Positions 39,863 to 62,450 of a DNA stretch of 64,000 bases are shown here, piece by piece. The stretch lies in assembly GCF_988243305.1 (NCBI RefSeq), contig NZ_OZ547136.1, one strand, 5' to 3'. The notes under the pieces were generated by a model that did no database searches, had not been told where the DNA came from, and saw only the letters and a list, made by a program, of their open reading frames with translations. The position numbers and the translations under genes are program-made. The stretch's first letter is position 1; each line of letters begins with the position of its first letter.

Positions 39863-39879
39863 TTGTTGGTTAAATCAGA

Positions 39880-41286
39880 TTAATCCAGCCATTCAGTATG
39901 GAACACACCTTCTTTATCAATGCGCTTATAAGTATGCGCACCGAAATAGTCACGCTGTGCCTGGATCAGGTTCGCAGGCAGAACAGCGGCACGGTAGCTA
40001 TCGTAATAGGCAACCGCAGCAGCGAAGGTCGGAACCGGGATACCGTTCTGTACTGCATAAGCAACGACATCACGCAGCGCCTGCTGGTAGTCATCGGCAA
40101 TTTGCTTGAAGTACGGAGCCAGCAGCAGGTTAGCGATCTGCGGATTTTCGGCATAAGCATCGGTGATTTTCTGCAAGAACTGCGCACGAATGATGCAACC
40201 AGCACGGAAAATCTTCGCGATTTCGCCGTAGTTCAGATCCCAGTTGTACTCTTCAGACGCTGCGCGCAGCTGAGAGAAACCCTGAGCGTAAGAAACGATT
40301 TTGCCCAGATACAGAGCACGACGAACTTTTTCGATGAACTCACCTTTGTCGCCAGCTGGCTGCGCTTGCGGGCCAGAGAGAACTTTAGATGCGGCAACAC
40401 GCTGCTCTTTCAGAGAAGAGATATAACGTGCAAACACAGACTCGGTAATCAGCGACAGCGGTTCTCCGAGATCAAGCGCGCTCTGGCTGGTCCATTTACC
40501 GGTACCTTTGTTAGCCGCTTCATCCAGGATCACATCAACCAGGTAGTTACCGTCTTCATCTTTTTTGGTGAAGATGTCTTTGGTGATGTCGATCAGGTAA
40601 CTACTCAGTTCACCGTTATTCCACTCGGTAAAGGTCTGTGCCAGTTCTTCGTTAGAGAGATTCAGGCCGCCTTTCAGGAGAGAATAGGCTTCAGCAATCA
40701 GTTGCATATCACCGTATTCAATACCGTTGTGAACCATCTTCACATAGTGACCCGCGCCATCAGCACCAATATAGGTAACGCACGGTTCGCCATCTTCAGC
40801 AACGGCGGCGATTTTGGTCAGGATCGGAGCAACCAGTTCATAGGCTTCTTTCTGCCCACCAGGCATGATGGAAGGCCCTTTCAGCGCCCCCTCTTCACCG
40901 CCGGAAACACCGGTACCGATGAAGTTAAAACCTTCGGCAGAAAGCTCACGGTTACGACGAATGGTGTCCTGGAAGAAGGTGTTACCACCATCAATGATGA
41001 TGTCACCTTTATCGAGGTATGGCTTGAGAGAATCAATAGCAGCATCCGTGCCTGCACCTGCTTTCACCATTAACAGGATGCGACGAGGCGTTTCCAGAGA
41101 TTCAACGAACTCTTTCACCGTATAGTAAGGAACCAGTTTCTTGCCTGGATTTTCGGCAATCACTTCTTCCGTCTTCTCACGGGAGCGGTTGAAAATAGAG
41201 ACGGTATAACCACGGCTTTCGATGTTGAGCGCAAGGTTGCGCCCCATCACTGCCATACCGACGACGCCGATCTGTTGCTTTGACAT
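39880..41286 (-). CDS. gnd: 6-phosphogluconate dehydrogenase (decarboxylating)
   Basis: 468-aa product [27 protein letters not shown]... Confidence 0.97.
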
Positions 41287-41448
41287 TGTTTACTCCTGTC
41301 AGGGGTGGTCACCGCCGAGTGTGCGGCTTAAATGTGGTATAGATGTTAACTCACTCATAGAGATGGTGAATAGCATTACCTTTGCGATACCACACTGAAT
41401 ATCTCATCTTTTCCGTCTTTTAAAACCTATTTATATGAATTTACTCAA

Positions 41449-42819
41449 TTACTTATTCAGTAACTCAAGGATAAGTTTTGTCTTTTCTTCCATCAGCGGC
41501 ACATCACCGCGCGATTCCACATTCAGGCGCACCACCGGTTCGGTGTTGGAGGAGCGCAGGTTAAAGCGCCAGTCGGCAAAGGTCATGCTGATGCCATCGG
41601 TACGATCCACCGCCAGCGCCTCGCGGCTAAAGTGCTGTTCGACGCGGTTAATCGCCTCAACGGGTTGCGCCAGTTTGCTGTTGATCTCACCGCTTGCCGG
41701 AAACGCTGCCATCCGGTCGCGCACCAGTTCGCCCAGCGTTTTTCCTTTCAGGCACACCAGTTCGGCTACCAGCAGCCACGGGATCATGCCGCTGTCGCAG
41801 TAAGCGAAATCACGGAAGTAATGGTGAGCGCTCATTTCGCCACCATAGATGGCGTCTTCCTTGCGCATACGTTCTTTAATAAAGGCGTGTCCGGTTTTCG
41901 ACATCACCGGAGTGCCGCCCGCGGCGGTCACCACATCAACGGTATTCCAGGAGAGACGTGGATCGTGGATGATCTTCGCGCCGGGATTTTTTTCGAGGAA
42001 CGCTTCTGCCAGCAGGCCGACAATGTAATAGCCCTCGATAAACTGCCCTTTTTCGTCAAACAGGAAGCAGCGGTCAAAATCGCCATCAAAGGCAATGCCC
42101 ATATCCGCTCCGTGTTTGATGACCGCATTGCGGGTGTCGTCGCGACATTCCGGCAGCAGCGGATTAGGAATACCGTTGGGGAAATTGCCGTCCGGCGTGT
42201 TGTGTACTTTGATTAATTCCACCGGTGCGCCGAGGGCTTTAAATCGGGCTTCAATGGCGTCCACCACCGGACCCGCCGCGCCGTTCCCGGAGTTAATCAC
42301 CAGCTTGAGCGACGTGAGGTTTTTGACGTTGATATAACCGAACAGGTGCTCAACGTAAGCGTCACGCAGATTGATTTGTTGATAGCGACCGCGTTTGGTT
42401 TCATCGACGGGAGGAAAGTCGTTGGCTTCTGCCAGACGCTGGACATCGCGTAGTCCGGTATCACCGCTGATCGGGCGAGCCCCCTCGCGAACCAGCTTCA
42501 TGCCGTTATAATCCATCGGATTATGGCTGGCGGTGACTTCAATGCCGCCATCCACGCCGAGATGGAACGTGGCGAAATAGATTTCTTCGGTGCCGGACAT
42601 GCCAATATCCAGCACATCGACGCCCGCATCCTGTAAACCTTTCGCCAGCGCCAGTTTTAAGGTTTCGCTGGTGAGGCGGGCATCACCGCCTAACACAATG
42701 GTTTTCGGTTTGAGAAATTCGCCATAGGCGCGACCAATGCGCCACGCAATATCTTCATTCAGTTCTTCGCCTAATTTCCCGCGAATATCATAGGCTTTAA
42801 AGCAGGTTAATTTTTTCAT
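41449..42819 (-). CDS. manB: phosphomannomutase (O-antigen cluster copy)
   Basis: 456-aa product [33 protein letters not shown]...; phosphohexomutase TASHNP active-site motif. Confidence 0.93.
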
Positions 42820-42843
42820 ATAAAAACCTTACCAATAATAAAA

Positions 42844-43602
42844 TTATTTATGCGCAAATAATTGCATTAGTTTTGATATTTTTCTGATAATGATAGCAAT
42901 TTTCCAATTTACATTATGGTTTTTCATAACTTCTACAATTTCCTTTGTACTTGATATCGCGTTATCAATTCTGGTACTTTCCCCACCCAATCTCATCTTT
43001 ACAAATACTTGAGGAACATAAATAACTTTAATATCATCACGTTTCAAAATCCTGACCATCTGATCATAGTCTGCAGCAATCCTATAGGATAAATCAAAAT
43101 ATCCATCGTCTTTATATAATTCCCTCCTCATATAGAAAGATGGATGCGGTGGTGCCCAGCCTAATGATAGCTTAGAACGTTTAAAAGGACCACTACGCCA
43201 GTATCGTTTGATTATATCAATTTGGTTTTTTTCGAAAAAAACCAAATCACCGTATACAACATCCGCTTTTGTCTCATGGAAACGGCTTACAATAGTTTCA
43301 ATAATATCAGGTCTTGCTAAAAGGTCATCAGAATGAACGAATCCAATAATATCTCCCGTAGATAAATTTATACCTTTATTTAAAGCATCATAGATACCGT
43401 TATCGCTTTCTGATAGACATTTGGTTACTCTTGTTGATACTTCGTTAATTAGTTTTAACGTATTATCTGTAGAACCACCATCAATAATTATATACTCTAT
43501 ATCTTTATAGGTTTGCAACTCTATTGACTCTAAAGTATCCCTTAAAGTCTTTTCACTATTATAAGTCACTGTAATAATACTGACTTTCATTTTAACATCC
43601 AA
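42844..43602 (-). CDS. family 2 glycosyltransferase (O-antigen)
   Basis: N-terminal VSIITVTYNSEKTL and DGGSTD motifs typical of GT2; 252 aa; low-GC sequence. Confidence 0.8.
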   Translation of the reverse strand: MDVKMKVSIITVTYNSEKTLRDTLESIELQTYKDIEYIIIDGGSTDNTLKLINEVSTRVTKCLSESDNGIYDALNKGINLSTGDIIGFVHSDDLLARPDIIETIVSRFHETKADVVYGDLVFFEKNQIDIIKRYWRSGPFKRSKLSLGWAPPHPSFYMRRELYKDDGYFDLSYRIAADYDQMVRILKRDDIKVIYVPQVFVKMRLGGESTRIDNAISSTKEIVEVMKNHNVNWKIAIIIRKISKLMQLFAHK

Positions 43603-43673
43603 TAATAATCATAATTAAATAACGTCAGTACCGCATTACGAATAATAATGTTGCATTAGTATCCAGCATCATT

Positions 43674-45074
43674 TTAGATTCTAACAACATCATCTTCATC
43701 CAAGTAAACACCTGAACGTACCTCAATAATCTCCAAAGGGATCTTTCCTGGATTCTCAATAAAATGAGGTACACCTATTGGTATATAAGTTGATTCATTT
43801 TCAGAAACAAGAAATATTTCATCTTCATAATGGACTTTTGCTGTTCCAGAAACAACAATCCAATGCTCAGTACGATGGTAATGAATCTGTTTAGCAGTTT
43901 TATGTCCAGGATGAATAACGACATGTTTAACCTCAAATCGAGATCCTTCCGCTATAGAGTCATGACTGCCCCATGGCCTAAATATTTCACGATGCTGCAG
44001 ATATTCCGTACGGTTATTAACTTTAAGTTTTTCTACAATATTTTTTACCTGTTGAACTTTATCTTTATGCGCAACGAGAATAGCATCTTTAGTTTCAACA
44101 ACTACTAAATCTTTAACTCCTACTACACCAATTAATCTATGTTGTGAGTAAAGATAACTGTCAGAAGAATCATGAATTAATACATCTCCTCTAATTGCAT
44201 TTCCACTTTTATCTTTTCTGCTAATTTCCCATAATGCAGACCAAGAACCAACATCGCTCCAGTGGGCATTTAATGGAACTACCACAGCCTCTGTTGTTTT
44301 CTCCATAACAGCGTAATCAATGGATTCTTCAGGGCAACAACTAAATGAGTCATTATCTATACGGATAAAATCAAGATCTTGTGTAGAGGACTTCAATGCT
44401 TGTTGGCATATTTTTAGTATGTCTGGTCTAAATTTATTCAACTCATCAATAAACACAGAAGCCCTAAACATGAATATTCCACTATTCCAAAGATAATCTC
44501 CATCTTCAAGATATTTTTTGGCCACATCTAGCTCAGGCTTTTCAACAAAAGCAGAAACTTTAAAACCATATTCATTTAAATTTTCTCCGGTTTTTATATA
44601 GCCATATCCAGTTTCGGGTTTGGTTGGCACAATACCAAAAGTTACCAGCTTACCTTCCTCTGCAAATTCTTTTGCAGCCAATATTGACGATATAAAGCGC
44701 TTTTGGTCTTGTATTTCATGATCGGCTGCTAGTACAAGCAGTATTGGATCCTCACCTGATGAAATCGCTTTAAGAGCAGCAAGCGCAACTGCGGGGGCAG
44801 TATTACGACCTACCGGCTCTAGTAAAATGCCACTATTCGCTAAATTTACATTACGCATCTGTTCTGCAACGATAAAACGATGAACTTCATTACAAATAAC
44901 CAGAGCAGGACGATGTTCAACCCCTTCAAGCCTTCTTAAGGTCTCTTGTAGCATAGTCAAACGACTAGTTAACGACAGGAATTGCTTCGGATATAGTGTT
45001 CGAGAAAGTGGCCACAATCTAGTTCCAGAACCACCGGCCATTACAACAGGAAGTAGCATATAAATAACCTTCAC
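43674..45074 (-). CDS. manC: mannose-1-phosphate guanylyltransferase
   Basis: N-terminal nucleotidyltransferase domain (LPVVMAGGSGTRLWPLSR) and C-terminal cupin domain; start overlaps the gmm stop (ATGA). Confidence 0.93.
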   Translation of the reverse strand: MKVIYMLLPVVMAGGSGTRLWPLSRTLYPKQFLSLTSRLTMLQETLRRLEGVEHRPALVICNEVHRFIVAEQMRNVNLANSGILLEPVGRNTAPAVALAALKAISSGEDPILLVLAADHEIQDQKRFISSILAAKEFAEEGKLVTFGIVPTKPETGYGYIKTGENLNEYGFKVSAFVEKPELDVAKKYLEDGDYLWNSGIFMFRASVFIDELNKFRPDILKICQQALKSSTQDLDFIRIDNDSFSCCPEESIDYAVMEKTTEAVVVPLNAHWSDVGSWSALWEISRKDKSGNAIRGDVLIHDSSDSYLYSQHRLIGVVGVKDLVVVETKDAILVAHKDKVQQVKNIVEKLKVNNRTEYLQHREIFRPWGSHDSIAEGSRFEVKHVVIHPGHKTAKQIHYHRTEHWIVVSGTAKVHYEDEIFLVSENESTYIPIGVPHFIENPGKIPLEIIEVRSGVYLDEDDVVRI

Positions 45075-45526
45075 TTAAAATAATTTTTTGTGTACTGATG
45101 AACTGAGGAATTAGCTAACAATTCGGCTATATCGAACCAATTGTAAGTACTATGTTGTAGTGTTGGATAGTTAATTTGATGTGGCATCAAACTAATCTCA
45201 TATCCGTGTACGACATAATGAGTTGAAAAACAAGTCCCAGAAAAATTGTCGCTGTAGAAATGTTCATAAATCCCAAGAAATTTTGCTTCATTAATGCTAA
45301 TTTGAACACCCAATTCTTCAAAAGTAACTCTTTTGAATGCGTTCTCGAAAGACTCATCTTTAAGAATCCGTCCCCCCGGCACAAACCAATAATTTTGTGC
45401 TGGACGATTAAGGCGCTGACCAAGCAGCGCCTTACCATCTTCGTTTCTTATAATAAGGTCTATCGAGATTAGTGGAGTATGTTCAACTATTGATTTAAAT
45501 AACTCTGTTTCTAATCTCTTGTTCAA
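45071..45526 (-). CDS. gmm: GDP-mannose mannosyl hydrolase (NUDIX)
   Basis: NUDIX box GGRILKDESFENAFKRVTFEELG; 151 aa. Confidence 0.88.
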   Translation of the reverse strand: MNKRLETELFKSIVEHTPLISIDLIIRNEDGKALLGQRLNRPAQNYWFVPGGRILKDESFENAFKRVTFEELGVQISINEAKFLGIYEHFYSDNFSGTCFSTHYVVHGYEISLMPHQINYPTLQHSTYNWFDIAELLANSSVHQYTKNYFK

Positions 45527-45528
45527 TA

Positions 45529-46494
45529 TTAACTCCTAAATGAGTCAAGATTATTTATAAACCATTTATATGTTAATTCTAGTCCTTGTTTTAAATTATA
45601 ACGATATTTCCAGCCCAAATTCTCAAGGCGTGTAACATCCATAAGTTTACGAGGCGAACCATCTGGTTTTGTTATATCAAAAACAATTTTTCCATCATAG
45701 CCAACAACTAAAGCCATTGTTTCTGCCATTTCACGTATGGAACAATCAACACCAGTACCTACGTTAATATGAGATAACATTGGTTGAGTATTTTTTTTAT
45801 AAATTTCATCATCAAGCTCCATCACATATACTGATGCAGCTGCCATATCATCAACATATAAAAACTCGCGTTTTGGAGTTCCCGTTCCCCAGACAACCAC
45901 TTCATTTAAACCAAGTTCCTTTGCTTCATGAAAACGCCGCATAAGCGCTGGAATTACATGTGAGTTATTGGGATGAAAATTATCATTCATACCATATAAG
46001 TTAGTAGGCATTACACTGCGATAATCACATCCATATTGGCGATTATAAGATTCACATAGCTTTATACCTGCTATTTTGGAAATAGCATAAGGCTCATTAG
46101 TAGGCTCAAGAGTTCCCGTCAAAAGTGCAGATTCTTTCATTGGCTGTTCTGCAAACTTTGGATAGATACAACTTGACCCTAAGAATAATAGTTTCTTTAT
46201 GCCCGCTTTATAAGATGAGTGAATAATATTGCTTTCAATGAGAAGGTTCTGATAAATAAATTCAGCTGGAAAAGTGTTATTAGCATGAATTCCTCCTACT
46301 TTTGCTGCTGCAAGGTAAACCTGATCTATTCTCTCTTGCTCAAAAAAACATTCAACATCCTTTTGAACTGTCAAATCGAGTTCTTTGTGAGTTTTGACAA
46401 TTAACTCAACATCATTACGTGCTAATAATTGACGACAAATAGCAGAACCAACCATCCCACGATGTCCAGCCACAAAAATTCGCTTCTTGGTCAT
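45529..46494 (-). CDS. fcl: GDP-L-fucose synthase
   Basis: 321-aa product [23 protein letters not shown]... Confidence 0.93.
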
Positions 46495-46497
46495 ACT

Positions 46498-47619
46498 TTA
46501 ACGCTCCAAAGAGACTGCCACGTCAAAACCATGGCTTTTAAGAAGTGCATGCTGTTTAGCTTTTTCTAAATCACTAGCCACCATTTCTGCACACATTTCT
46601 TCAACTGTAATCTCTGGCTCCCAACCCAAGACATTTTTTGCTTTTGTTGGATCACCAAGAAGAGTTTCAACTTCTGCTGGTCGAAAATAACGAGGGTCAA
46701 CGCGAACAATAACATCACCAATATTAACACCAACGGCGCAATCTGATGTTTTATTTACAACCATTGCAACCTCATCAACACCAGTACCGGAAAACTCAAG
46801 TTCAAGTCCAACTTCTTTAGCAGACATACGGACAAATTCACGTACAGATATTTGTTTGCCAGTGGCAATAACAAAGTCTTCTGGCTGGTCTTGTTGAAGC
46901 ATCATCCATTGCATACGAACATAATCTTTCGCATGCCCCCAATCACGTAAAGAATCCATGTTGCCAAGATATAAGCATTTTTCTATTCCCTGCGAAATAT
47001 TAGCTATAGCACGTGTGATTTTACGTGTTACAAACGTTTCCCCACGACGTGGGGATTCATGATTGAACAAAATACCGTTGCATGCATACATTCCATAAGA
47101 CTCACGATAGTTTACAGTGATCCAATATGCATACAGTTTAGCTACGGCATAAGGTGAACGAGGATAGAACGGCGTTGCCTCTTTTTGTGGAACTTCCTGA
47201 ACTAATCCATACAATTCAGAGGTTGACGCCTGATAAAATCGGGTTTTTTTTTCTAATCCCAAAAAACGAATAGCTTCCAATAATCGTAAAGTACCTATAG
47301 CATCAACATCAGCTGTATATTCTGGGGATTCGAAGGAAACAGCTACGTGACTCATTGCTCCGAGGTTGTAAACTTCATCAGGTTGAACTTCAGATAATAT
47401 ACGAGTCAAATTAGAAGTATCTGTTAAGTCACCATAATGAAGGTGTAATTTTAAATTAATATTATGGGGATCTTGGTATATATGGTCAATACGTCCAGTA
47501 TTAAAAATAGAAGAACGTCGTTTTATTCCATGAACCTCGTAACCTTTATTTAGTAGAAACTCTGCCAAATATGAACCATCTTGACCAGTAATGCCAGTAA
47601 TTAATGCTTTCTTTGTCAT
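46498..47619 (-). CDS. gmd: GDP-mannose 4,6-dehydratase
   Basis: 373-aa product [37 protein letters not shown]... Confidence 0.95.
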
Positions 47620-47629
47620 AAAATTATTC

Positions 47630-48664
47630 CTACAGTAGTTTCTTGTAAATATCGATAGTTTTGTCAGTACATTTTTTCCAAGAAAAACGTTGTGCTTGAG
47701 ATAAACCTTTCTTAATAATTTGATTTCGATTTCTATTTATAAATGATATACCATCAATAAGGTTGCTTATACTTAACTCATCCATCAAATAACCGGCGTC
47801 ACCTGCAACCTCTGGTATTGAGGAGTGATTATACGCAATGAATGGGCATCCTGCCCTCATTGCTTCTAAAAGAGGAATACCAAATCCTTCATAACTTGAC
47901 GGATAAATAAGAGAATGAGCTTGATTAAATTTTAGATTCAACTCTTGCTCAGTTAAATATGGATAATGAATATATCGATATGGTATATATTTATCAAGTA
48001 AAAATTTCTCAGCCTTTCCCAAAGGGCCTCCACCTACAATATATAGTTTGAACCCCTCTAATTTGTTTATTGCTTCAACTGCAAGTTGAAAGTTTTTATA
48101 TGCTTTTCTCGAACCAATAAAAAGCATGAAATTATCATCATCGTTATAATTAACGTTTTTTAATTCATAAAAATTATCAGACACCCCATTGTGAATGATT
48201 TCGATTTTACTTTCAGGTACTGGACAATACCTCAACAAATCATTGGCAGTATTTTCTGAAATGCAAATTATTTTATCACTGTTTTTTATAGCATTGTACT
48301 TCTGATGACAATGAACGTATTTACGTAAACCTGACATATATTTTTCATATGTAAAGTCATGTACTGTTGTTATGTTTTTATTTTTTTTGCCCTTACTAAA
48401 TCTATAATAACTAGAATGTAATAGAGAGTTTTCAGGAATATCAACAGCTCGATACCTTTCAAGAAAGCGAGGATATAGATTAATATAACGTCCAGGTTGT
48501 CGCACATCTTCACTTATAAATTGACAGCCTGTATTCTCATAGTTTAATATCGTATATTCAATATTTGTGGCTTTTATCGCTTTTATTATTTGATTATAAT
48601 AAACAGAAATGCCACCGTATGACTGGAGATTATATATAATACCATCCAAATATAACATAGGCAC
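47630..48664 (-). CDS. GT-B fold glycosyltransferase (GT1/GT4-like; O-antigen)
   Basis: C-terminal EX7E-type motif region [23 protein letters not shown]; 344 aa. Confidence 0.8.
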
Positions 48665-48673
48665 CTTTTATAT

Positions 48674-49687
48674 TTAATTGTATCCATCAGGATTTAGCGT
48701 ATGCCATTTCCACGCAGAAGAAAGCATTTCGGTCAAATCTCGCCTAGCCTTCCAGTCCAGTTCTTTTTCAGCTTTGGAAACATCCGCCCAACATTCTGCA
48801 ACATCGCCGCTTCGGTTAGGGCCAAAACTATAATTAATATTTTTCCCAATAATTGATTGAAATGTTTTTATTACTTCTAATACAGAATATCCTCTACCCG
48901 TACCTAAGTTATATATTTTATAATTTCCTCCTTTGCCAAACATTTTAAATGCTGAAATATGCCCCTCAGCTAAATCATTTACATGAATATAATCTCTGAT
49001 ACCAGTCCCATCAGGCGTTGGATAGTCATGACCATAAATAGTAAGCGCAGGTAATTTACCTAAAGCAACATTCATCATATATGGAACTAAGTTAGCAGGA
49101 GTACCTCTGGGATTTTCACCTATTAACCCAGACTCATGCGCCCCCACTGGATTAAAATATCGCAAAATAATCACATCTAATTTAGGGTTTGCCAGAGAAG
49201 CATCTTTTAATATAACCTCGGAGTAATATTTACTGGTCCCGTATGGATTCGTTGTTTCACCTATACGACATTTTTCATTGATAGGTATCGTTTCTGGAAG
49301 ACCGTACACCGTAGCAGATGAGCTAAAGATAATTTTATTTACATGAAAGATCTTCATTAACTCTAACAAATTTAAAAGCCCAACAATATTATTCATATAA
49401 TAACGTATAGGACTTTGAACTGATTCTGAGACAGACTTAAGGCCTGCAAAATGTAATACTTTAGAGAATGTGTGATTCGTGAATATAGTCTTTAATTCTT
49501 TTTTGTCCAATAAATCTACCTTATATGCTCTGATTTTCTTACCACTAAGCTTTGAAATGACTTTGATGATATCTTCTGTAGAATTAGAAAAATTATCTAT
49601 GATGACAACGTCTTCATTCTGCTCCAATAATGACAGAACAGTATGGGACCCAATATATCCAGCTCCACCCGTAACTAATATTGTCAT
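48674..49687 (-). CDS. UDP-hexose 4-epimerase (GalE family)
   Basis: N-terminal ILVTGGAGYIGSH Rossmann motif and a YGTSK catalytic motif; 337 aa; low GC, so cluster-specific rather than housekeeping galE. Confidence 0.82.
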   Translation of the reverse strand: MTILVTGGAGYIGSHTVLSLLEQNEDVVIIDNFSNSTEDIIKVISKLSGKKIRAYKVDLLDKKELKTIFTNHTFSKVLHFAGLKSVSESVQSPIRYYMNNIVGLLNLLELMKIFHVNKIIFSSSATVYGLPETIPINEKCRIGETTNPYGTSKYYSEVILKDASLANPKLDVIILRYFNPVGAHESGLIGENPRGTPANLVPYMMNVALGKLPALTIYGHDYPTPDGTGIRDYIHVNDLAEGHISAFKMFGKGGNYKIYNLGTGRGYSVLEVIKTFQSIIGKNINYSFGPNRSGDVAECWADVSKAEKELDWKARRDLTEMLSSAWKWHTLNPDGYN

Positions 49688-49696
49688 AAAAACACC

Positions 49697-51019
49697 TTAT
49701 TTGAATTTAAAAAAAACTATTTGCATCGATAATCTCAAGCATATGTATGCCATAAAGAACATACCTAATTCAAATATCATAGAAGAAAACTCTGAGCGTT
49801 GGAAATTGATAGATTGGGAAAGAAAAACAAGATAAAGAAAATAGTTGCTCCCAATTAACCTTTCCATTATATATGAATAACCACATAAAATGGCAGGAAA
49901 TATAATTACACCATAATAATTATAATTAATAAAAGCTTCTGTAAAAGGAGTAAATGCATATCCCATCATAAACTCTTGACTTGGCAAATAAACTTCCTTT
50001 GCAAATTGAATAGCTAATGTGTCTGGCTTTAATCCCATAAATAATTCTTTTGGTATAAAGTTTACAATGAACTGAAGATAGGATATACCAAAAAATTGAG
50101 TCTGATAATGTATCGAAGAATAATATTGAAGTGTAGATATAGGATAAATAAATTCACCCAAAGCATTCAATAATCTTATGCTTGATTCGACATTATAATC
50201 TGAACGATATATCCCAAAAAGTATAATCGTTGATACAAATAGAATACTGAACAACGCTACTTTTAATGGTATCTTAAATTTAGCTTTATAAAGTGATAGC
50301 AATACAGCCATAATAAAAGATAAAGCAATTTCTCGTCTTGAACCTACCAGCATTAAAGTATAAAAATATAAAAGCACAGGTATGCTGTATATTACGAAAC
50401 TATAATTTGTGAGACTTTTTTTTACTATCTTTAAATCAAGTAAAATCCAAAAATAAGCAATAACCACATATTTCAGATACCATCCACTTTGACTTACCGA
50501 ATTAATTAACTCTAGGCGAGTACTTTCGCCCAAAGCATTCAGAGAAAGATTTCTTGATTGATATAGAAAAAATAATGATATTAACCATGCTATGCATGAT
50601 GGAATAAATAGATTATAGTTATTGTCATAGTTATATTGTTTGTTTAAAAGAAATATATTGATACCGTGAGGCCTAATCAAACTAATCGATGCAACTATAC
50701 ACCAAACAGCAACACAATATAAGAATGAAGTGTTGATTATATTATTTTCAACATTAAATACATTAACACCAAAAAAATAATACAACAAAAAAGACACAAA
50801 AAAATAAAAAGGCGATAATATTATAAATATTCCATCAAACCATACCCACATTCGATTATATACAAAAAAAAGAATTGCAATTGTAAATATTACAGATAAA
50901 AACCAAATTAGGATAGCATCAATTTCAACTTTGACAGAAGTGCTCAATACAGCAATCATTATCAACCCAATAAAGCCATAAAATTGAGCCAATACCAGTT
51001 TGTATTGTTTATAAATCAT
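49697..51019 (-). CDS. wzy: O-antigen polymerase
   Basis: 440-aa highly hydrophobic polytopic protein with very low GC, positioned among the glycosyltransferases. Confidence 0.75.
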   Translation of the reverse strand: MIYKQYKLVLAQFYGFIGLIMIAVLSTSVKVEIDAILIWFLSVIFTIAILFFVYNRMWVWFDGIFIILSPFYFFVSFLLYYFFGVNVFNVENNIINTSFLYCVAVWCIVASISLIRPHGINIFLLNKQYNYDNNYNLFIPSCIAWLISLFFLYQSRNLSLNALGESTRLELINSVSQSGWYLKYVVIAYFWILLDLKIVKKSLTNYSFVIYSIPVLLYFYTLMLVGSRREIALSFIMAVLLSLYKAKFKIPLKVALFSILFVSTIILFGIYRSDYNVESSIRLLNALGEFIYPISTLQYYSSIHYQTQFFGISYLQFIVNFIPKELFMGLKPDTLAIQFAKEVYLPSQEFMMGYAFTPFTEAFINYNYYGVIIFPAILCGYSYIMERLIGSNYFLYLVFLSQSINFQRSEFSSMIFELGMFFMAYICLRLSMQIVFFKFK

Positions 51020-51854
51020 ATTTTAACAATCCCGTCCAGAAACCGATTAATCTGTACATATATAATTTTTTTTGTTTTTTTAAAACGATACCAAAAAATG
51101 ATTTTACTGTGATCCTGAAAATTTCCAATAGTAATAAATAACGAGATTTCACTAAATACTTCTTTATCACGACACCATATCCAACTGCATATTTTCTGTA
51201 TTTTTCTGGTATCCCTTCACAATATAAATCATTATCGTGATAAACTCCAAATATAGGTTGAAAACATACTCTAAACCCAAGAGATTTCAGCCGAAAAAAT
51301 AACTCCGTTTCTTCGGATCCACCGAATAAAGTACCAACACCTAACCTTTCATCAAAATATATATTATCGAGTTTATGAGTAAAAATAAAAGTACCCACAC
51401 TTAGTGACGATTTAATTATTTGATTATAACCCATTTCCTTTTTAGTTTTAGGATAAACTCTATTGGCATAAGATTTCATTGTTTGAAAATCTAATACAGG
51501 AACTGAAAGAACGGTTTCTTTTTTGATATTTGATTGAATCACCTTCTCAAAAAAATCAGGAGCATAAAAAGCATCATCATCACAGAACCCAATAACATTA
51601 CCACTGCATAGTTTAAGCCCTTGATTACGAGCAGTTGAAAGTGGTACTTTATTTGATTTAACCAACTTGTATTTTATATTTTTTGCGTGTTTTAAAAATA
51701 ATTGCTCAATTATGATATCATCAGTCTGATCAATAAATATAATTTCTAGGTTTTTGTACGTACTGCTAGCTATGCTATTTAGCAGTCGTTCAATTTCTTT
51801 ATCCCTTCCACCTTGAGTTGTGCCTATCAAACTAATTTTATAAAAGTTATTCAT
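51009..51854 (-). CDS. family 2 glycosyltransferase (O-antigen)
   Basis: GT2-like N-terminal domain with a DDD motif (GFCDDDAFY); 281 aa. Confidence 0.75.
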   Translation of the reverse strand: MNNFYKISLIGTTQGGRDKEIERLLNSIASSTYKNLEIIFIDQTDDIIIEQLFLKHAKNIKYKLVKSNKVPLSTARNQGLKLCSGNVIGFCDDDAFYAPDFFEKVIQSNIKKETVLSVPVLDFQTMKSYANRVYPKTKKEMGYNQIIKSSLSVGTFIFTHKLDNIYFDERLGVGTLFGGSEETELFFRLKSLGFRVCFQPIFGVYHDNDLYCEGIPEKYRKYAVGYGVVIKKYLVKSRYLLLLEIFRITVKSFFGIVLKKQKKLYMYRLIGFWTGLLKYDL

Positions 51855-51855
51855 A

Positions 51856-52776
51856 TTAATATCCTTTTTTTAAGATTGAATTAATCTTTATTTTACAATA
51901 ATAAGCAAATTTTCTAAGAAAAACACCATTTATATATTTAATCTTTACTCCTAACTTAGAAAAAATAATAAAATACACCTTAAAATAATAACAAATAGCA
52001 TTAAGAAAACGATGACTTGATTGCGGAAACAAAACCATCCCTAGCTCATCTTTATCGAGAATAATCCCCTGTTTTTTTAAATTACCAATGGCAATAGATA
52101 TGTGAATATCTGCTTGTATATGCTTTTTTATATTCGATATTTGATTTCCGTGATTTCGATAATAAAGCAAGGGTATATTTATATTACAGAATTTTCCGTA
52201 GTTTGCTAATCTACTCCAAAACTCATAATCTTCAGCATATTGGTAGCGTGGCTTATAATATAGGCATTCTTTTTTTATAATGCTGCTTCTCATCATTACA
52301 GTTGGATGAGCAAAACAACTGCCCACCAACAATCCTATTTTACAGGCTTCGTCTGAGTTAGGCATTTTTATAATTTTTCCGCTATTAACAGCTGACTCAA
52401 AAACTTTGATATTAGTTCCACAACACGCTATTTTTTGATCTGCATCCATTATTTCAACTTGTAATCTCAACCTTTCTCTGTGAGCAATATCATCAGCATC
52501 CATTCTAGCAATATACACTCCCGTAGCCATGTCTAATAATTCATTTAAAGTAGCTACTATCCCTTTATTTTCTCTATGCTTAATTTTGAATATCGCGGGA
52601 TATTTATTTTTATATTCATCAAGTATCTTTTGTGTACCATCCTGCGAGCCATCATTGATGATGATAATTTCAAATATTTTATATGTTTGTTCCAATATAC
52701 TGTCAATGCATGCGCCTAAGTATTTTTCAGCATTATATACCGGTATTATAACGGATACTTTGTTTTTATTAATCAT
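51856..52776 (-). CDS. family 2 glycosyltransferase (O-antigen)
   Basis: N-terminus KVSVIIPVYNAEKYLGACIDSILEQTY and DGSQDGT, a classic GT2 signature; 306 aa. Confidence 0.85.
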   Translation of the reverse strand: MINKNKVSVIIPVYNAEKYLGACIDSILEQTYKIFEIIIINDGSQDGTQKILDEYKNKYPAIFKIKHRENKGIVATLNELLDMATGVYIARMDADDIAHRERLRLQVEIMDADQKIACCGTNIKVFESAVNSGKIIKMPNSDEACKIGLLVGSCFAHPTVMMRSSIIKKECLYYKPRYQYAEDYEFWSRLANYGKFCNINIPLLYYRNHGNQISNIKKHIQADIHISIAIGNLKKQGIILDKDELGMVLFPQSSHRFLNAICYYFKVYFIIFSKLGVKIKYINGVFLRKFAYYCKIKINSILKKGY

Positions 52777-52782
52777 AATATA

Positions 52783-54054
52783 TCATACTTTGTTTTTATT
52801 AAGCAGATAACAGATCGTTACTATTAAGGAGAACATATATAATGCTTGAGATATTATATACGCTTTAAAAACATAAGAAATTTGAGCATTTTCGACGTAG
52901 CATAACGAATACTTACTTAATATACAATATACAGACCATTGTAACACTTCTAACACTATATATTCTTTTACGAATGCTTTGCTAATCAGCAAATAACCAA
53001 GCACCCATGCAATTATCTTAAAAAAATCTCCAATTAGTTGATAAACTATAACATCAACAATAGGAACGAACTCGTGTGTAAATAGAATATTTACTATCAA
53101 ACCGCGAAATGTATACATCAAGACTGAAGATATACAAACTAACGGAACCAAATACAAATAACAAACTTTTATTTCATTAAGCAATTCTGAACGGTTAGAT
53201 GCACTTGAAAACCTTGGAAAGAAATATACCCCCAATGTAGTCGTAATTAACATCAAATAGACTGAACTTATTCTATTAACAGCATCCCACAACCCAGCAT
53301 ACTCAATATTTATTGATGTTATGATTTCATTTCTCACATATAACGTACTAACTGGCACTAATATAGCTGAAGTGACTGTCATTAAAGAAAAAATTATGAT
53401 CCGTTTTAATATTGAAATATCAATTCGATTGCAATTATTAACATAGTATTCTCTTAAATATTTTTTTGAGTAAAAAAAAGTCACAAAAAACAATATAGCT
53501 TGATTTGAAACTACAGCAATCAATGCTCCTCTCATACCAAAAGAGATTGTCAATATAAAGGCGTATATTGCAGATATTAAACTCGATATGATATTAATCC
53601 ATATATAATTTTTAATAAATGACAATCCATTTAACATAGAAAGAATTATATTATTCCATGCATATAAAATAACACTCCCTCCCAAGAAATAAATTGCGAT
53701 GCTTACTTCATCATTAGAATTGAAAAATTGTTCGATAATTATATTTTTAAAGATAATTATGATAACAGCGGTTATAAATCCCATTATAGTAGACAAATAA
53801 ATTGCATTAATCCAAAAACTCCAGATTTTTTCCTTATTACTATTCTTATACTCTGACGTATACTTAACAATACTCGTTGAAATAGCTTGTGATGGCGCAA
53901 CCATAGCTATATTAAGGATATTTTGGATTTGGCCAATAAGTGCATATCCAGACGTACCTAAATATATTGCGAATACTTTATTAAGTCCAAGTAGAGTTGC
54001 TATTTTGACAAATACAGAAAGGCCATTAAGAATAAAGACATTATATACTTTCAC
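52783..54054 (-). CDS. wzx: O-antigen flippase
   Basis: 423-aa polytopic protein of the polysaccharide-transport (MOP/PST) type, first gene of the low-GC block. Confidence 0.8.
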   Translation of the reverse strand: MKVYNVFILNGLSVFVKIATLLGLNKVFAIYLGTSGYALIGQIQNILNIAMVAPSQAISTSIVKYTSEYKNSNKEKIWSFWINAIYLSTIMGFITAVIIIIFKNIIIEQFFNSNDEVSIAIYFLGGSVILYAWNNIILSMLNGLSFIKNYIWINIISSLISAIYAFILTISFGMRGALIAVVSNQAILFFVTFFYSKKYLREYYVNNCNRIDISILKRIIIFSLMTVTSAILVPVSTLYVRNEIITSINIEYAGLWDAVNRISSVYLMLITTTLGVYFFPRFSSASNRSELLNEIKVCYLYLVPLVCISSVLMYTFRGLIVNILFTHEFVPIVDVIVYQLIGDFFKIIAWVLGYLLISKAFVKEYIVLEVLQWSVYCILSKYSLCYVENAQISYVFKAYIISQALYMFSLIVTICYLLNKNKV

Positions 54055-54122
54055 AGTTCACCTAACATATTAAGTAGGTTATGATAACAAAACTCATATT
54101 TAATTATACCATAAATATAAAC

Positions 54123-54134
54123 CACGCTACCGCC
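54123..54134 (-). promoter_or_regulatory. ops element (RfaH-dependent antitermination) within the JUMPstart region upstream of the O-antigen operon
   Basis: Top strand cacgctaccgcc equals GGCGGTAGCGTG on the transcribed strand, in the galF-wzx intergenic region. Confidence 0.8.
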
Positions 54135-54407
54135 CCTGGCTATACAGCTACCAGAGCACTGCGTGTGTGTCTACAATGTAACGAGCGTTTCATGCTCGCA
54201 ATAAACAAAAAACCAAAAGCTAAATTATCTTACTAATCAGCTCTGAAAACAAGGAAATGTGTAAAAAAAGTCCTATTGCTGACTTGTTATTATCCCGAAT
54301 ATTTATAAATCAATAATAGCAGGAAGACTCGCAACAAGTTACTTTGCCTGCTAATCTTCACAACTATTACAGTCTTTTCGCATCTGTTGCATCCGATTCG
54401 ATTTTCA

Positions 54408-55301
54408 TTATTCCCTTAACAGCTTCTCAATCCCTTTACGGAACTTCGCCCCTTCTTTTAGGTTACGCAGTCCATACTTCACAAACGCTTGCATATAACC
54501 CATTTTTTTACCGCAGTCGTAGCTGTCACCGGTCATCAGCATGGCATCAACAGACTGTTTTTTCGCCAGTTCGGCAATAGCATCAGTCAGTTGGATACGT
54601 CCCCATGCACCTGGCTGAGTGCGTTCCAGTTCCGGCCAAATATCGGCAGAAAGCACATAACGGCCCACGGCCATGATGTCTGAGTCCAGCGTCTGCGGCT
54701 GATCCGGTTTTTCGATAAATTCAACAATGCGGCTGACTTTACCTTCGCGATCCAGCGGTTCTTTGGTCTGGATGACGGAGTATTCAGAGAGGTCACCCGG
54801 CATACGTTTTGCCAGCACCTGGCTACGGCCCGTTTCATTGAAGCGTGCAATCATGGCAGCAAGGTTGTAGCGTAGCGGGTCGGCGCTGGCGTCGTCGATC
54901 ACAACGTCTGGCAGCACCACGACAAATGGATTGTCACCAATGGCGGGTCGTGCACACAAAATGGAATGACCTAAACCTAAAGGTTCGCCCTGACGCACGT
55001 TCATAATAGTCACGCCCGGCGGGCAGATAGATTGCACTTCCGCCAGTAGTTGACGCTTCACGCGCTGCTCAAGGAGAGATTCTAATTCATAAGAGGTGTC
55101 GAAGTGGTTTTCGACCGCGTTCTTGGACGCGTGAGTTACCAGGAGGATTTCTTTGATCCCTGCAGCCACAATCTCGTCAACAATGTACTGAATCATTGGC
55201 TTGTCGACGATCGGTAGCATCTCTTTGGGAATCGCCTTAGTGGCAGGCAACATATGCATCCCAAGACCCGCTACCGGTATAACTGCTTTTAAATTCGTCA
55301 T
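54408..55301 (-). CDS. galF: UTP-glucose-1-phosphate uridylyltransferase paralogue GalF
   Basis: Start at [43 protein letters not shown]... Confidence 0.95.
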
Positions 55302-55542
55302 CATTTTCCTACCTCTAAGTGGCTGATAGTGCGTAAATTATGCCATAGGTTAGCCAAACGGTATGGCTATATACCAAAGCTTAGTTCCGCATAACTTTGA
55401 TTAAACCTTACGATAACACTACACACCATCAGCATCTGGGTTACTCGGATTACTCGGAAATCCACATACTGATAATTTAATCAGTACCTCTTTCCGAATA
55501 ATCGTAGTCCAACCTGGTCCTTTTTTCTCTGACTCGTCTGCA

Positions 55543-56538
55543 TTACTCAGAAACAAACGTTATGTCGTCTTTTTTGGCATGAACGAATTCATACTGCAGA
55601 GTTCGATCCAGACCTTGCGACAGCGTATACGGTGCCACAAAACCTGAAGAATGCACTTTCGTTGCGTCAAACTGTGTTGTTGCGCAGAATTTTTTCACGC
55701 GCACTGAGCTGACAGCGTATTTTTTGCCCGTAATTTTGCTCAGGATATCAAAACAATATCCACCCAGCATTCCTAGTGGGTAAGGCAAGTGCATAGAAGG
55801 GATCTTTTTGTTCAGGCTTTGTTCAACTTCAGCAACCAACTGGTTCATGTTCAGGTCTGGCTTATCAACGTAGTTATAAACCTCATAACCTGCGGCAACA
55901 TTCTTCAGTTTGTACTTGATAAACTCAACAATGTTTCCAACATAAGCCATGGACTTATAGTTAGTTCCTGCACCCACCATCATAAACTTGCCGCCAGCGA
56001 TCTGTTTCAGCAAGTTATAGACGTTACCGCGGTTGCGTTCACCGAAGATAACGGTAGGACGGATGATGGTTAATGAACGTTCTGTTGGTGCTTTGTTATA
56101 CCATTCACGCAGCACTTCCTCTGCCTGCCACTTACTTTTGCCGTAGTGGTTGAAAGGGTCGTGTGGATGGTTTTCGTCAGGGTTATGTTTGTTCAAACCA
56201 TAAACAGCAACGGAACTGGTAAAGATGATATTTTTAACGCCATTTTTTTCCATGGCCGCCAGCACATTGCGGGTACCCTGAACGTTGACATCATAATAGA
56301 GAGAAGTAGGGCTGACGTCATCGCGGTGTTCCGCTGCCAGTAGTACAACAGTGTCAAAACCAACTAATGCCTGGTCGAGTGCCTGTTGATCGCGAACATC
56401 GCCAATCTGTGTGATTTCTGGATAAAAGTGGCTCTGCTGTTTGTCCAGGTTCTTGATATTAAAGTCAGCAATTGCCGTTTCAAGTAGTCGGGTTCCTACG
56501 AATCCGGAAGCTCCTATGAGCAAAACGTTATCGTTCAT
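55543..56538 (-). CDS. gne: UDP-N-acetylglucosamine 4-epimerase-type SDR protein (Z3206/Gne-like)
   Basis: 331-aa product MNDNVLLIGASGFVGTRLLE...; sits between galF and wcaM, as the Z3206-type gne does in several serogroups. Confidence 0.8.
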   Translation of the reverse strand: MNDNVLLIGASGFVGTRLLETAIADFNIKNLDKQQSHFYPEITQIGDVRDQQALDQALVGFDTVVLLAAEHRDDVSPTSLYYDVNVQGTRNVLAAMEKNGVKNIIFTSSVAVYGLNKHNPDENHPHDPFNHYGKSKWQAEEVLREWYNKAPTERSLTIIRPTVIFGERNRGNVYNLLKQIAGGKFMMVGAGTNYKSMAYVGNIVEFIKYKLKNVAAGYEVYNYVDKPDLNMNQLVAEVEQSLNKKIPSMHLPYPLGMLGGYCFDILSKITGKKYAVSSVRVKKFCATTQFDATKVHSSGFVAPYTLSQGLDRTLQYEFVHAKKDDITFVSE

Positions 56539-56695
56539 AAATCACTTTAGTCTGGTTGTTACGTAAGAAACACAAGATAAAGATGAGTACCTTCCCTGAG
56601 TAGTCAATGCTGCCCAGCCCCAGCTTTAACAGTTAGTGTGAGGATTATAATCTTTTAGAACATTATATCCAGTAAGTTTATGAATGGTCGCAAAT

Positions 56696-58090
56696 CTACT
56701 CCCTCCGTTCCGGCAATCTAAAGTTAATCTTTTCCACATTAACAATATGGTGATTAATCCTGTCGATATCGACGGAGCTTTGCCCTTTTTCATTCACCGC
56801 ATGAACATTTGCAAGAGACAGTAGTGTTTCTTTTTTCGCCATAAATACGCCGCGAACGTCTTTGCGCATGTCAAAGTTCATGCTCAATGCGGGTCCAACT
56901 GAGGATTCCTGCATCACCTTGATATTTCGCATAAAAAGATGTTGCGGTTTGTTGTGTAACTCCAGCGACGCACGCTTCATCTCAATGTTAGTCAGTGCCA
57001 CAAAGGAGACGGCATTCCCGGCAGAGATTTGGATGCCGCGCAATTTGTAAGCAAGGTGGGTATTATCCAGTTGAATATTATTCACTCGGAAATTTTGCGG
57101 TATCGAGAGATATGTGCCTTTAATTACCCCATAGCCGATTAACATTCCGGCGCTATTAATCATTTCAATATTATCAATCACGAAATTGTCACAACCGTAA
57201 ATAGCGACCGTCGCGTTATCAATACCTGCTTTCTTACTGAAATCCGGCGTGATATTGCGGGCTTTGATATTACGAATAACAAAATGTTTACCATTTTCAA
57301 CATGGATCAACTGCCGACAATCTGATCCCGTGATATTCGCCACGACAAAGTTTTTCACTGCCTGGTCTTCCGGGTAATTATTATCATAAGTGCTTCCCGC
57401 AAGACCTATGCCGATGCCCCAGTTGATTTTGCCGTTGGTACAGTTGATGCGCTCGATGACATGGTCGGAGATCAAAATATCACGGTCGTTAATCGCCACG
57501 TTCCATTCAATGGCGTCGCCCTGTAAGTCGCTGAACTTACAGTTGGTGATGTTGGCACCGATAATCTGGTTATGAAATCCCTGGCGTAAGATGGCGTAAT
57601 TAGCGTGGCTAACGGTCAGGTTATCGATGGTCAGGTTGCGCATGACCCGTTTGTTTTTGCCGCCGATATAAATCTGCGTTACCGGGCCAAAGCCGCTCAT
57701 AGTCAGCCCTTTGATGGTGCAGTCAGAGCCGCGCACATCCAGGGTGATGTTATGCATACTGCCGCCCTCCTCCCCTGTCACCTGGCTGCCGTCCTCTAAG
57801 ACAAACCGCCCTCTGCCGTTGCCGCGCAGGCTTCCAAGAATGTGTAACGTTTTGCCAGCAGGAATGAAGATGCCGGTGTTGATATTGTCACAAACCAATC
57901 CGCCAGGCACGACGACTGTTTGCCCTTCGCTGAAGGCTTGTTTAAATGAGGCGATCCAGTCGTGTGGATTATAATCGTTAATGTTAACGCTTGTTCGGGC
58001 GGGAAGTGCACGGGCGAAAGGGGTATGGAGGAAGGCAAGCGCCGAGCTTACCGTCAGGAAGGTGCGTCGGGAGAGTTTTTTAAATGGCAT
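56696..58090 (-). CDS. wcaM: colanic acid biosynthesis protein WcaM
   Basis: 464-aa product [28 protein letters not shown]... with a Tat-like signal. Confidence 0.9.
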
Positions 58091-58100
58091 ACGTTCTCCT

Positions 58101-59321
58101 CTATAAAGCCTGTAACAAGCTGGCGAGTTCTCGATTAATCACCTGCTGGTTAAAATCGTGTTCGACTTTTTCGCGCGCACGTTTGACAACCGGAGCCAGT
58201 TCGTCGGTGTCCAGTTGGCTAAACGCCGCCAGTCGTTGCGCCAGTGCGCGAGCATCGTTCTCAGGCACCAGCCAGCCGGATTTATCGGCCTCCACCAGTT
58301 CCGGTATTCCGCTATGCAGAGTAGAAACCACCGGAATGCCGACCGCCATCGCTTCCATTAGCGCCACCGGAATACCTTCCATATCGCCATCCGCACCCGT
58401 TACCGATGGCAACAAGAAAACATCCGCGTTGTCGAGCATCGCTTTCACTTCATGGCTCGGTTTAAAGCCAGGCATCTCTACCACATCTTCCAGTTGATAT
58501 TGTTCGATGAGGGTGCGCAGGCGTCGTTCCCACGGGCCAATGCCGAGAATGCGATAGCGAAATGCAACGCCCTGCTCTTTCAACTGCCGGCAGGCTTCGA
58601 TCGCCACATGCAGGCCTTTTTTCTCGGTTAAGCGTGCGACGGAGATGATTTCCAGCGGCGTTGCGGGCGCTTTCACCGGACGCGGGCTAAAGCGCGTCAT
58701 GTCCACGCCCATGCGCGATACGGCGATTTTTTCCCTCGGGCAGCCCATTTTTTGCAGCCTTCCGGCCCACAAATCGCTTATCGGTAACATCAGGTCGCCA
58801 CGGCGAAACAGTTGTTGATATTCGGGAGTGTAATGGTTGAGCACTTCCCGACTGGAAATATCAATTCCGTGGAAAATGGTGGCAATTTTGCCGCGAATGA
58901 CACCCAGTTCGCGGAGTTTTGCTGCGGTTACCCCCGCAGGGCCAAAATGAGCGATAAAGACATCGGCATGAAGCGGTGTTGCGACCTGGCCGCAAATGGC
59001 AGACAAAATCAGGTTCCGCGACTCAGCACCATAGCGTTTGAGGTTGAGCGCCTGCCAGGTATTTTTACGATGAATGCCGCGTAACGTCTGGCTGGCGCGG
59101 TGGCGCAGTTTCGCTACTTTGCCCGCAGGTTCGTCCTGTAACCAACGGGTTCTTGCGGCAAGGTTGTATTTCGTCCATGCCGCGTGGGTGTTTTGTGTGT
59201 CGCCTTGTTGCAGCGCGACAATCTCCACCTCAAAGCCCATATCAATAAACGCAGTGATTTGGTTAAGAACGAAGGTTTCCGACGACAGCGGAAATTTCAA
59301 TAAGAAGAAGCCGACCTTCAT
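58101..59321 (-). CDS. wcaL: colanic acid glycosyltransferase WcaL
   Basis: 406-aa GT-B glycosyltransferase [22 protein letters not shown]... Confidence 0.9.
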
Positions 59322-60598: not shown

Positions 60599-60654
60599 TT
60601 TTTCCTCATAAATTTGATGCCAGGTGAGGCTGTGTTTGTTGTGTTCGTTGCCGT

Positions 60655-60950
<296 letters not shown>

Positions 60951-60970
60951 TCGGAACCGAAAACAGCAAC

Positions 60971-62449: not shown

Positions 62450-62450
62450 A

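Follow-up and report, generated by a model that had tools for sequence, protein, structure and literature searches.

In many Salmonella enterica O-antigen clusters, manB is reportedly nearly identical to the cpsG gene of the species itself while manC is said to stay low-GC, a pattern for which concerted evolution by gene conversion has reportedly been proposed. These clusters belong to another species than E. coli, and not all of them have been converted: the Gal-initiated groups of Salmonella carry low-GC manB and manC genes, with 36-41% GC (PMC3715488). In E. coli B REL606, manB and cpsG share 96% identity. Recombination between the two genes gave rise to seven rearrangements in Lenski's long-term evolution experiment (LTEE), including an example deletion of 23,293 bp (about 23.3 kb), and 10 of 12 populations lost the region (PMC4173774, Raeside et al. 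2014); a chimeric phosphomannomutase from an LTEE deletion was described in a 2026 preprint (bioRxiv 10.64898/2026.06.14.732165). The manB of E. coli O157 is >95% identical to cpsG and unusually variable, without a sign of positive selection, a diversity that Iguchi et al. 2011 (PMC3158064) explain by gene conversion from homologues in the same genome. As cited in that paper, Samuel et al. 2004 held that the colanic-acid gene had taken the place of the original O157 manB. For the O14 type strain, Liu et al. 2020 (PMC7685785) relay from Jensen and Reeves 2004 that the O-antigen cluster was lost by recombination between two manB genes. The manB/cpsG repeat of the E. coli O125 locus examined here is thus of a kind already known, a textbook-level oddity of the O-antigen loci in E. 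coli and Salmonella.

The window, a stretch of 64,000 nt from NCBI RefSeq assembly GCF_988243305.1 (contig NZ_OZ547136.1), holds an E. coli region in which the ORF list, NCBIfam matches, and the annotation of genome AH25 identify the his genes, wzzB-ugd-gnd, an O125 O-antigen cluster, and colanic-acid genes. Within the O-antigen cluster, manB has gnd (39880-41286) on one side and the family-2 glycosyltransferase gene GT2 and manC on the other. The cluster is followed by galF (54408-55304), gne, and then the distal colanic-acid genes wcaM, wcaL, wcaK, wzxC, and wcaJ. The end of the window cuts cpsG, with only its 3′ terminal 101 nt inside. AH25 is the nearest complete genome, in which the cluster is annotated as O125, with wzx and wzy of the O125 family. 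Because AH25 differs from positions 40000-64000 of the window by only about 15 mismatches in 24 kb, 2 of them in the last 6 kb, and because the overlap of the two cpsG sequences is identical (101/101 nt), the full AH25 cpsG was used as a proxy for the window's own copy, which is seen for 101 nt only. Elsewhere in the comparison with AH25, wzzB-ugd holds a cluster of 71 mismatches; strains that share identical O-antigen genes differ by 4-5% in gnd. The features referred to below are as follows.

About 30.2-37.2 kb, plus strand: his operon, followed by wzzB, ugd, and gnd on the minus strand
41287..41448, minus strand: manB-gnd spacer, which travels with the manB tail
41449..41486, minus strand: AT-rich manB tail, coding nt 1334-1371 (12 residues plus the stop codon), a probable relic of the original low-GC manB
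41449..42819, minus strand: manB, O125 O-antigen phosphomannomutase gene, 456 aa, intact (NCBIfam PRK15414, conserved loops)
41487..42819, minus strand: cpsG-derived manB body, coding nt 1-1333, 96.1% identical to AH25 cpsG, one arm of the direct repeat
41487-41549 and 63938-64000, minus strand: near-identical stretch visible in the window, 61/63 nt identical
42820..63899, minus strand: interval that a crossover between manB and cpsG would remove (ORF list, NCBIfam, AH25 annotation)
62451-63845: wcaJ, adjoining the cpsG fragment
63900..64000, minus strand: cpsG 3′ terminal 101 nt, second arm of the direct repeat, 0 mismatches to the AH25 cpsG end

The window manB differs from the AH25 manB by 1 nt. 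Its product matches NCBIfam PRK15414 ("phosphomannomutase CpsG") over residues 1-456 with 1047.7 bits, against a cut-off of 801, and retains four conserved loops, namely TASHNP (residue 96), DGDFDR (245), GEMSAH (327), and RSSNTEP (422). With loops for catalytic serine, metal, sugar, and phosphate binding, it is a predicted alpha-D-phosphohexomutase (phosphomannomutase).

Inside the window, the repeat is visible as a 39-mer, CTTCCATCAGCGGCACATCACCGCGCGATTCCACATTCA, which occurs exactly twice, at 41487-41525 and 63938-63976, both on the plus strand; the chance expectation for a repeat of this length was zero matches in 100 shuffles. When the manB stop (41449) is set against the cpsG stop (63900), 81 of 100 nt match, compared with at most 35/100 at other offsets. 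The near-identical 3′ sequence reported in the initial annotation is thus real, with 61 of 63 nt identical around the exact 39-mer, and only its placement at about 41497-41580 was slightly off: the homology starts at 41487 and can be traced to 41549, where it ends within the window because the window stops there on the cpsG side. The two mismatches of the 63-nt stretch correspond to coding nt 1293-1294, and the stretch overlaps the end of the phosphate-binding loop RSSNTEP, the codons of which lie at 41536-41556. Beyond it, the gene 3′ ends (41449-41486 and 63900-63937) match at just 21 of 38 nt, in agreement with the earlier remark that the extreme termini differ. Since manB and cpsG share the minus strand, the repeats are direct, and with their stop codons 22,451 nt apart, the proposed direct orientation at a distance of about 22 kb was correct as well.

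Against the full-length AH25 cpsG, manB (1371 nt) aligns without gaps, with 52 mismatches in nt 1-1333 and 17 in the last 38 nt. The repeat is therefore 1.33 kb long (1333-1335 nt) and covers 97% of the gene. At its 5′ end, the homology begins 2 nt upstream of the manB ATG, and the next 200 nt upstream match at 53/200; at its 3′ end, it stops at coding nt 1333, and the 200 nt downstream of the stop codon match at 57/200. In window coordinates, the 3′ breakpoint lies at 41486/41487 (coding nt 1333/1334). The initial annotation had proposed a mosaic manB with a breakpoint near its 3′ end, to be checked by a full-length alignment with identity windows. This alignment, with the AH25 proxy, bears the proposal out: divergence is not uniform along the whole gene, since an identity of 96.1% over nt 1-1333 gives way to 21/38 matches, and GC falls from 55% to 26%. 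Within the body, 45 of the 52 differences are at third codon positions, with 6 amino-acid changes in 444 residues. Perfect-identity tracts number 22 at a length of at least 25 nt and 6 at a length of at least 50 nt, the longest being 101 nt, which is sufficient for recombination dependent on RecA. The possibility that the 63-nt stretch is a distinct segment of high identity was rejected, as it is 96.8% identical compared with 96.1% gene-wide and the body differences are evenly spread (93-99% identity per 100-nt window; longest difference-free run, permutation P = 0.61). The 63 nt noticed first are the tip of a larger homology and are as similar as the remaining 1,270 nt.

The base composition of manB sets it apart from its neighbors. 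The O125 cluster contains five genes that duplicate colanic-acid genes, listed here with the nucleotide identity of each pair and the GC3 of the O-antigen copy.

gmd (colanic-acid) and gmd (O-antigen): 69.5% identity, GC3 0.24
fcl (colanic-acid) and fcl (O-antigen): 64% identity, GC3 0.23
gmm (colanic-acid) and gmm (O-antigen): 51% identity, GC3 0.30
cpsB (colanic-acid) and manC (O-antigen): 59% identity, GC3 0.23
cpsG (colanic-acid) and manB (O-antigen): 95% identity, GC3 0.63

With a GC3 of 0.63, compared with 0.64 in cpsG, and a body GC of 55%, manB is a colanic-acid-type gene, while its four neighboring pathway genes are only 51-70% identical to their colanic-acid counterparts and have low GC3. 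At the 5′ boundary of manB, GC steps down: it is about 54% in manB itself and about 30-39% in the genes that follow.

The 3′ tail has the opposite character. It differs from the cpsG tail at 17 of 38 positions, with a GC of 26% compared with 53%; it is nevertheless in frame and of the same length, so that both proteins have 456 aa, and it retains the CpsG residue pattern E-x-[KR]-T-[KR]-x-[IL]-L-x-L-L-N-[KE]. An identical tail is found in the manB genes of O7 (REL606) and O11. When the tail and spacer were used together as a 214-nt query at a coverage of at least 80%, they were found in 434 of 5426 complete E. coli genomes, including strains labelled O6, O7, and O68 as well as O11 and O125 carriers. 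The O125 case thus belongs to a common and old module, found in this many genomes of several serogroups. Sequence similar to cpsG was present in 4697 of the same 5426 genomes. A donor of the tail was sought with a degenerate tail-peptide pattern, which gave 0 matches in 100,044 species-representative genomes. Since no low-GC manB with this tail was found among the species representatives, it is the composition, frame, and length of the tail that suggest it to be a remnant of a native manB, which would have been replaced by cpsG rather than joined by a simply inserted cpsG copy. Three AT-rich tail types, those of O125, O157, and O75, start within about 16 nt of one another, just after a conserved 18-residue block, the O157 and O75 types beginning about 16 nt earlier than the O125 type. 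The conserved block encoding RSSNTEP may have anchored the 3′ crossover of independent replacement events.

Among the described systems, E. coli B REL606 (O7) is the closest: its direct repeats are likewise ~1.33 kb long and ~96% identical, are spaced about 22-23 kb apart, and enclose similar colanic-acid genes. Its manB has the same AT-rich tail, the breakpoint at nt 1333/1334, and the same 17 tail mismatch positions, making the O125/O11 instance one more documented case with tail and breakpoint as in the E. coli B pair. In contrast to O125, the O7 cluster of REL606 is disrupted by IS1, and the homology starts only about 15 nt into the gene, which has a different start, instead of 2 nt upstream of the ATG. 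Furthermore, it is in the REL606 background, and not in an O125 strain, that the deletion has been seen experimentally. O157 resembles O125 and O11 in that manB is far more variable than the other cluster genes, but its manB has another AT-rich tail, starting ~16 nt earlier, and perB and an IS remnant lie between it and gnd. In O75 (M1/5, L005), manB also has a cpsG-like body (about 95%) and an AT-rich tail from about the same position; unlike in O125, however, the colanic-acid-like segment also takes in most of manC, which is annotated as cpsB and aligned with the cpsB portion of the junction query described below, and wzx lies between manB and gnd. The O14 type strain represents the deleted state and the window the undeleted one.

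The reading favored here, with a probability of roughly 90% for the account as a whole, is that a native manB was replaced by cpsG, that the two genes evolve in concert, and that the outcome is a deletion-prone direct repeat. The O125 cluster would once have had its own low-GC phosphomannomutase gene, which cpsG would have overwritten by homologous recombination from the start codon to 38 nt before the stop codon, with only the AT-rich 3′ tail (the last 12 codons) of the original gene surviving. The manB body would have kept exchanging with the cpsG/manB pool of the species, by gene conversion and/or inter-strain recombination, and manB and cpsG would therefore evolve in concert up to the sharp boundary at nt 1333/1334. 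The by-product is a direct repeat of 1.33 kb at 96% identity, its arms separated by 22.4 kb, and unequal recombination between these arms may delete the O-antigen cluster together with galF, gne, and wcaJ-wcaM. The product of such a deletion would be one functional hybrid cpsG/manB gene next to gnd, in a strain without O-antigen or colanic acid. This account is anchored in the observed extent and boundaries of the homology, the contrast in composition, the polymorphism shared between the two loci, and the genomes that carry the deletion.

Shared polymorphism was assessed in an allele set of six manB genes (O125, O125ac, two O11, O7, and O75) and six cpsG genes from six strain backgrounds. Across the body, these twelve copies show 0 fixed differences between manB and cpsG, which have 48-54 polymorphisms in common; the mean numbers of pairwise differences per 1302 nt are 43.4 for manB-manB, 46.1 for cpsG-cpsG, and 48.7 for manB-cpsG comparisons. 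In the tail, there are 16 fixed differences between the loci (5 manB and 6 cpsG copies). The window manB is 94.8-96.6% identical to the cpsG alleles of other strains, to other manB bodies, and to the hybrid genes of deletion strains. The variability of manB stands out within the gmd-to-manB module common to the O125 and O11 clusters: between module carriers, fcl, gmm, manC, and GT2 differ by 0-0.65%, compared with 1.2-3.1% for manB. Between O125 and O125ac, 0 of 3555 nt differ in fcl-gmm-manC-GT2 and 24 of 1371 nt differ in manB, with 22 of these 24 differences falling within nt 441-915 (P = 0.0017). The manB differences between O125 and the O11 strain ES7 are clustered too (P = 0.00045). Thus, manB is a mosaic of segments taken from the pool of manB/cpsG alleles.

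By which route these patches arrive is a separate matter. A closer match of manB to the resident cpsG was looked for in the allele set and was not found, with 48.3 differences for resident and 48.8 for non-resident pairs; this comparison lends no support to recent within-genome conversion, and the exchange could be largely inter-strain. That the extra manB diversity and shared polymorphism arose mainly by recombination between strains, and not by conversion from the resident cpsG, is a serious possibility, held at somewhat below even odds; the events could be crossovers within manB when O-antigen clusters are transferred, or the entry of cpsG or manB DNA from outside. It agrees with the position of manB at the gnd-proximal edge of the cluster, beside obvious recombination boundaries (gnd, 4-5%; wzzB-ugd, 71 mismatches), and with one part of the O125ac manB patch (nt 861-915), which matches the cpsG alleles of other strains and not the resident one. 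The same O125ac gene, however, also agrees perfectly with its resident cpsG over a 143-nt tract (nt 451-593), and the two form the most similar pair (37 differences); Iguchi et al. ascribed O157 manB diversity to within-genome conversion (PMC3158064). The two routes are not exclusive, as both are homologous exchange within one allele pool.

The consequence of the repeat, as put forward in the initial annotation, was deletion or replacement of the whole O-antigen and colanic-acid interval. Deletion across the interval is supported by the E. coli B experiments, the O14 report, and six genomes found here; the claim was too wide in one respect, since the interval does not include the whole colanic-acid cluster, but, besides the O-antigen cluster with galF and gne, only the last five colanic-acid genes (wcaJ to wcaM). 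Starting from the manB side, it comprises GT2, manC, gmm, fcl, gmd, a family-4 glycosyltransferase gene (GT4), galE, wzy, two further GT2 genes, wzx (O125), galF, gne, wcaM, wcaL, wcaK, wzxC, and wcaJ. A predicted junction of 4371 nt (cpsB 3′ end, cpsG nt 1-1333, manB tail and spacer, gnd) was used as a query against the 5426 complete E. coli genomes. An unbroken match was obtained in three genomes (VREC0864, TUM14697, and isolate 127), and a fourth, FDAARGOS_1249, has a slightly different cpsB-cpsG spacer. In two genomes of the O157 lineage (7.1_Anguil and CEC13002), the order is cpsB, hybrid cpsG, IS remnant, perB, and gnd. All six are annotated with the architecture wcaI-cpsB-cpsG-gnd-ugd-wzzB-his, as in O14, and lack wcaJ-wcaM, galF, and the O-antigen genes; in four of them the tail is of the O125 type, and the other two have an O157-type tail together with perB. 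Because their hybrid genes differ by about 3%, the four O125-tail deletions are independent events. When the six hybrid genes were compared with the alleles in hand, which do not include the parental ones, no clean switch marking a crossover point was seen, and mismatches were spread. Most other genomes with at least 80% coverage of the junction query were rejected as deletions, being O75 strains whose cluster normally carries a colanic-acid-like manC and manB. In principle, collapsed repeats or variants that arose on laboratory passage could be among the six assemblies; 7.1_Anguil is labelled O157:H7.

The other explanations are all far less probable than inter-strain exchange. It is improbable that a duplicate of cpsG was recruited into a cluster that had never owned a manB, acquiring its tail at the insertion junction. 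This would fit with the absence, among species-representative genomes, of a low-GC manB with the O125-type tail, and with the larger colanic-acid-derived segment (manC plus manB) that the O75 cluster can hold. Against it, the tail is in frame, gives exactly 456 aa, and follows a CpsG-like residue pattern, and the start of three tail types within about 16 nt is as expected for crossovers within pre-existing manB genes; for O157, too, replacement of an original gene was the conclusion, in the form in which Samuel et al. 2004 are cited in PMC3158064.

Slightly more doubtful still is that the sharp 3′ boundary, common to several serogroups, and the persistence of the repeat are not passive: the 12-residue tail would have a pathway-specific role in ManB (for example, an interaction with the O-antigen GDP-mannose/fucose enzymes) that selection shields from conversion, or the repeat would be kept as a contingency device. 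If the latter were true, lineages exposed to phage or immune pressure could often lose O-antigen and colanic acid in one go. Such a device is compatible with the parallel LTEE deletions and with the independent natural ones. All of this is more simply explained if the boundary is where homology ends and the deletions are by-products of any long direct repeat.

Ancient paralogy maintained by strong purifying selection alone, with no recombination, deserves almost no credence. The enzymes are indeed conserved, with intact catalytic loops and 6 amino-acid changes in the first 444 residues, but conservation extends to synonymous sites, with only 45 third-position differences in 444 codons, and the four pathway genes duplicated alongside manB are just 51-70% identical and of very different GC3. 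The homology breaks off sharply at the ATG and at nt 1333, and the two loci have about 50 polymorphisms in common and 0 fixed differences. Identity at synonymous sites and the sharpness of the boundaries effectively refute this explanation. The reverse direction, in which the colanic-acid cpsG would derive from the O-antigen manB, has an equally negligible chance: identity by itself is symmetric, but composition and distribution contradict this direction, given that the GC3 of the shared body (0.63-0.64) agrees with the colanic-acid cluster and the E. coli core, not with the O-antigen cluster (0.23-0.30), that cpsG-like sequence occurs in 4697/5426 genomes versus 434 for the manB tail, and that the low-GC relic is at the manB locus and not at cpsG. 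An assembly artefact as the origin was rejected on composition, synonymous-site identity, and distribution.

The manB/cpsG repeat has practical consequences for work on these loci. PGAP calls the O-antigen manB "colanic acid biosynthesis phosphomannomutase CpsG", a label that misleads annotation and read mapping and that the repeat explains. It also accounts for the poor performance of manB as a marker inside a single O serogroup, where the gene is 5-10 times more variable than its neighbors. Finally, the repeat explains the one-step rise of rough strains without O-antigen and colanic acid, as in O14, the LTEE lines, and the six genomes identified here.

In all genomes inspected, the O-antigen phosphomannomutase gene manB (41449-42819, minus strand, in the window, and its counterparts at related loci) is named "colanic acid biosynthesis phosphomannomutase CpsG" by the NCBI annotation pipeline PGAP, because the encoded protein passes the CpsG model; these genomes therefore seem to hold two cpsG genes. 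A single protein accession, WP_001704335.1, is shared by the hybrid cpsG/manB genes of VREC0864 and TUM14697, each the probable product of a manB x cpsG deletion, and by the O11 ManB of ES7, while 40-44 synonymous DNA differences separate the underlying genes.

Two complete assemblies of the O157 lineage, 7.1_Anguil (O157:H7) and CEC13002, are devoid of nearly the whole O157 cluster and of wcaJ-wcaM; all that is left ahead of gnd is a hybrid cpsG, an ISAs1 remnant, and perB. One record of the pair still carries the O157:H7 label. The two strains are either rough variants or products of an assembly that collapsed the repeat. Surface-polysaccharide genes have also decayed or been targets of IS activity at several related loci: in VREC0864, ugd is interrupted by IS3, a truncated wcaA adjoins an IS110 element, and wcaE has an internal stop; in ES7, the O11 wzy carries IS1 and manC has an internal stop; and in C 236-04A, ISKpn26 sits between galF and wzx.

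Further features of the window include large open reading frames in its left part, of which the first two entries below are examples, and a tandem array:
6680-9955, large open reading frame (1091 aa)
10070-12592, large open reading frame (840 aa)
60659-60943, tandem array in the wzxC-wcaK spacer (96-nt unit, 2.9 copies, 93% matches)

In AH25, the nearest complete genome, whose cluster is annotated as O125, the counterpart of positions 1-30000 comprises a CP4-44-like island (cbtA/cbeA, yeeS, and an antirestriction gene) alongside genes for dynamin-family and patatin-like proteins and a number of IS elements, a content that is AH25's own and may differ from that of the window. The 96-nt unit of the spacer array looks like REP/BIME palindromic elements, and a 4-kb query that includes the array gave a median of 34 matches per E. 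coli genome. Variable REP copies in the wzxC-wcaK spacer were also reported by Iguchi et al. 2011 (PMC3158064).

Over the 27 kb compared with AH25, 78 of the 93 mismatches fall within 37000-39999 (wzzB-ugd), with only ~15 in the remaining 24 kb (40000-64000). This concentration indicates that the two O125 strains, nearly identical elsewhere, are separated by a recombination boundary close to where ugd meets gnd.

In the O75 cluster of E. coli M1/5 (L005:19558-24089), manC (annotated cpsB) as well as manB (annotated cpsG) is colanic-acid-like, so that the colanic-acid-derived segment is larger than that of O125; wzx is located between manB and gnd. This layout occurs in ~70 genomes of the collection.

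The O125 and O11 clusters have a 3′ module in common, fcl-gmm-manC-GT2-manB (41449-47619 in the window; L008 and the ES7 locus, L009), in which identity is at least 99.4% except in manB (GT2, family-2 glycosyltransferase gene). The gmd genes of the two clusters diverge by 4.1%, and the 5′ halves (wzx, wzy, and glycosyltransferases) are serogroup-specific, together suggesting that a recombination junction lies in or near gmd. The common GDP-fucose/mannose module may have been the base on which the O125 and O11 serogroups were built.
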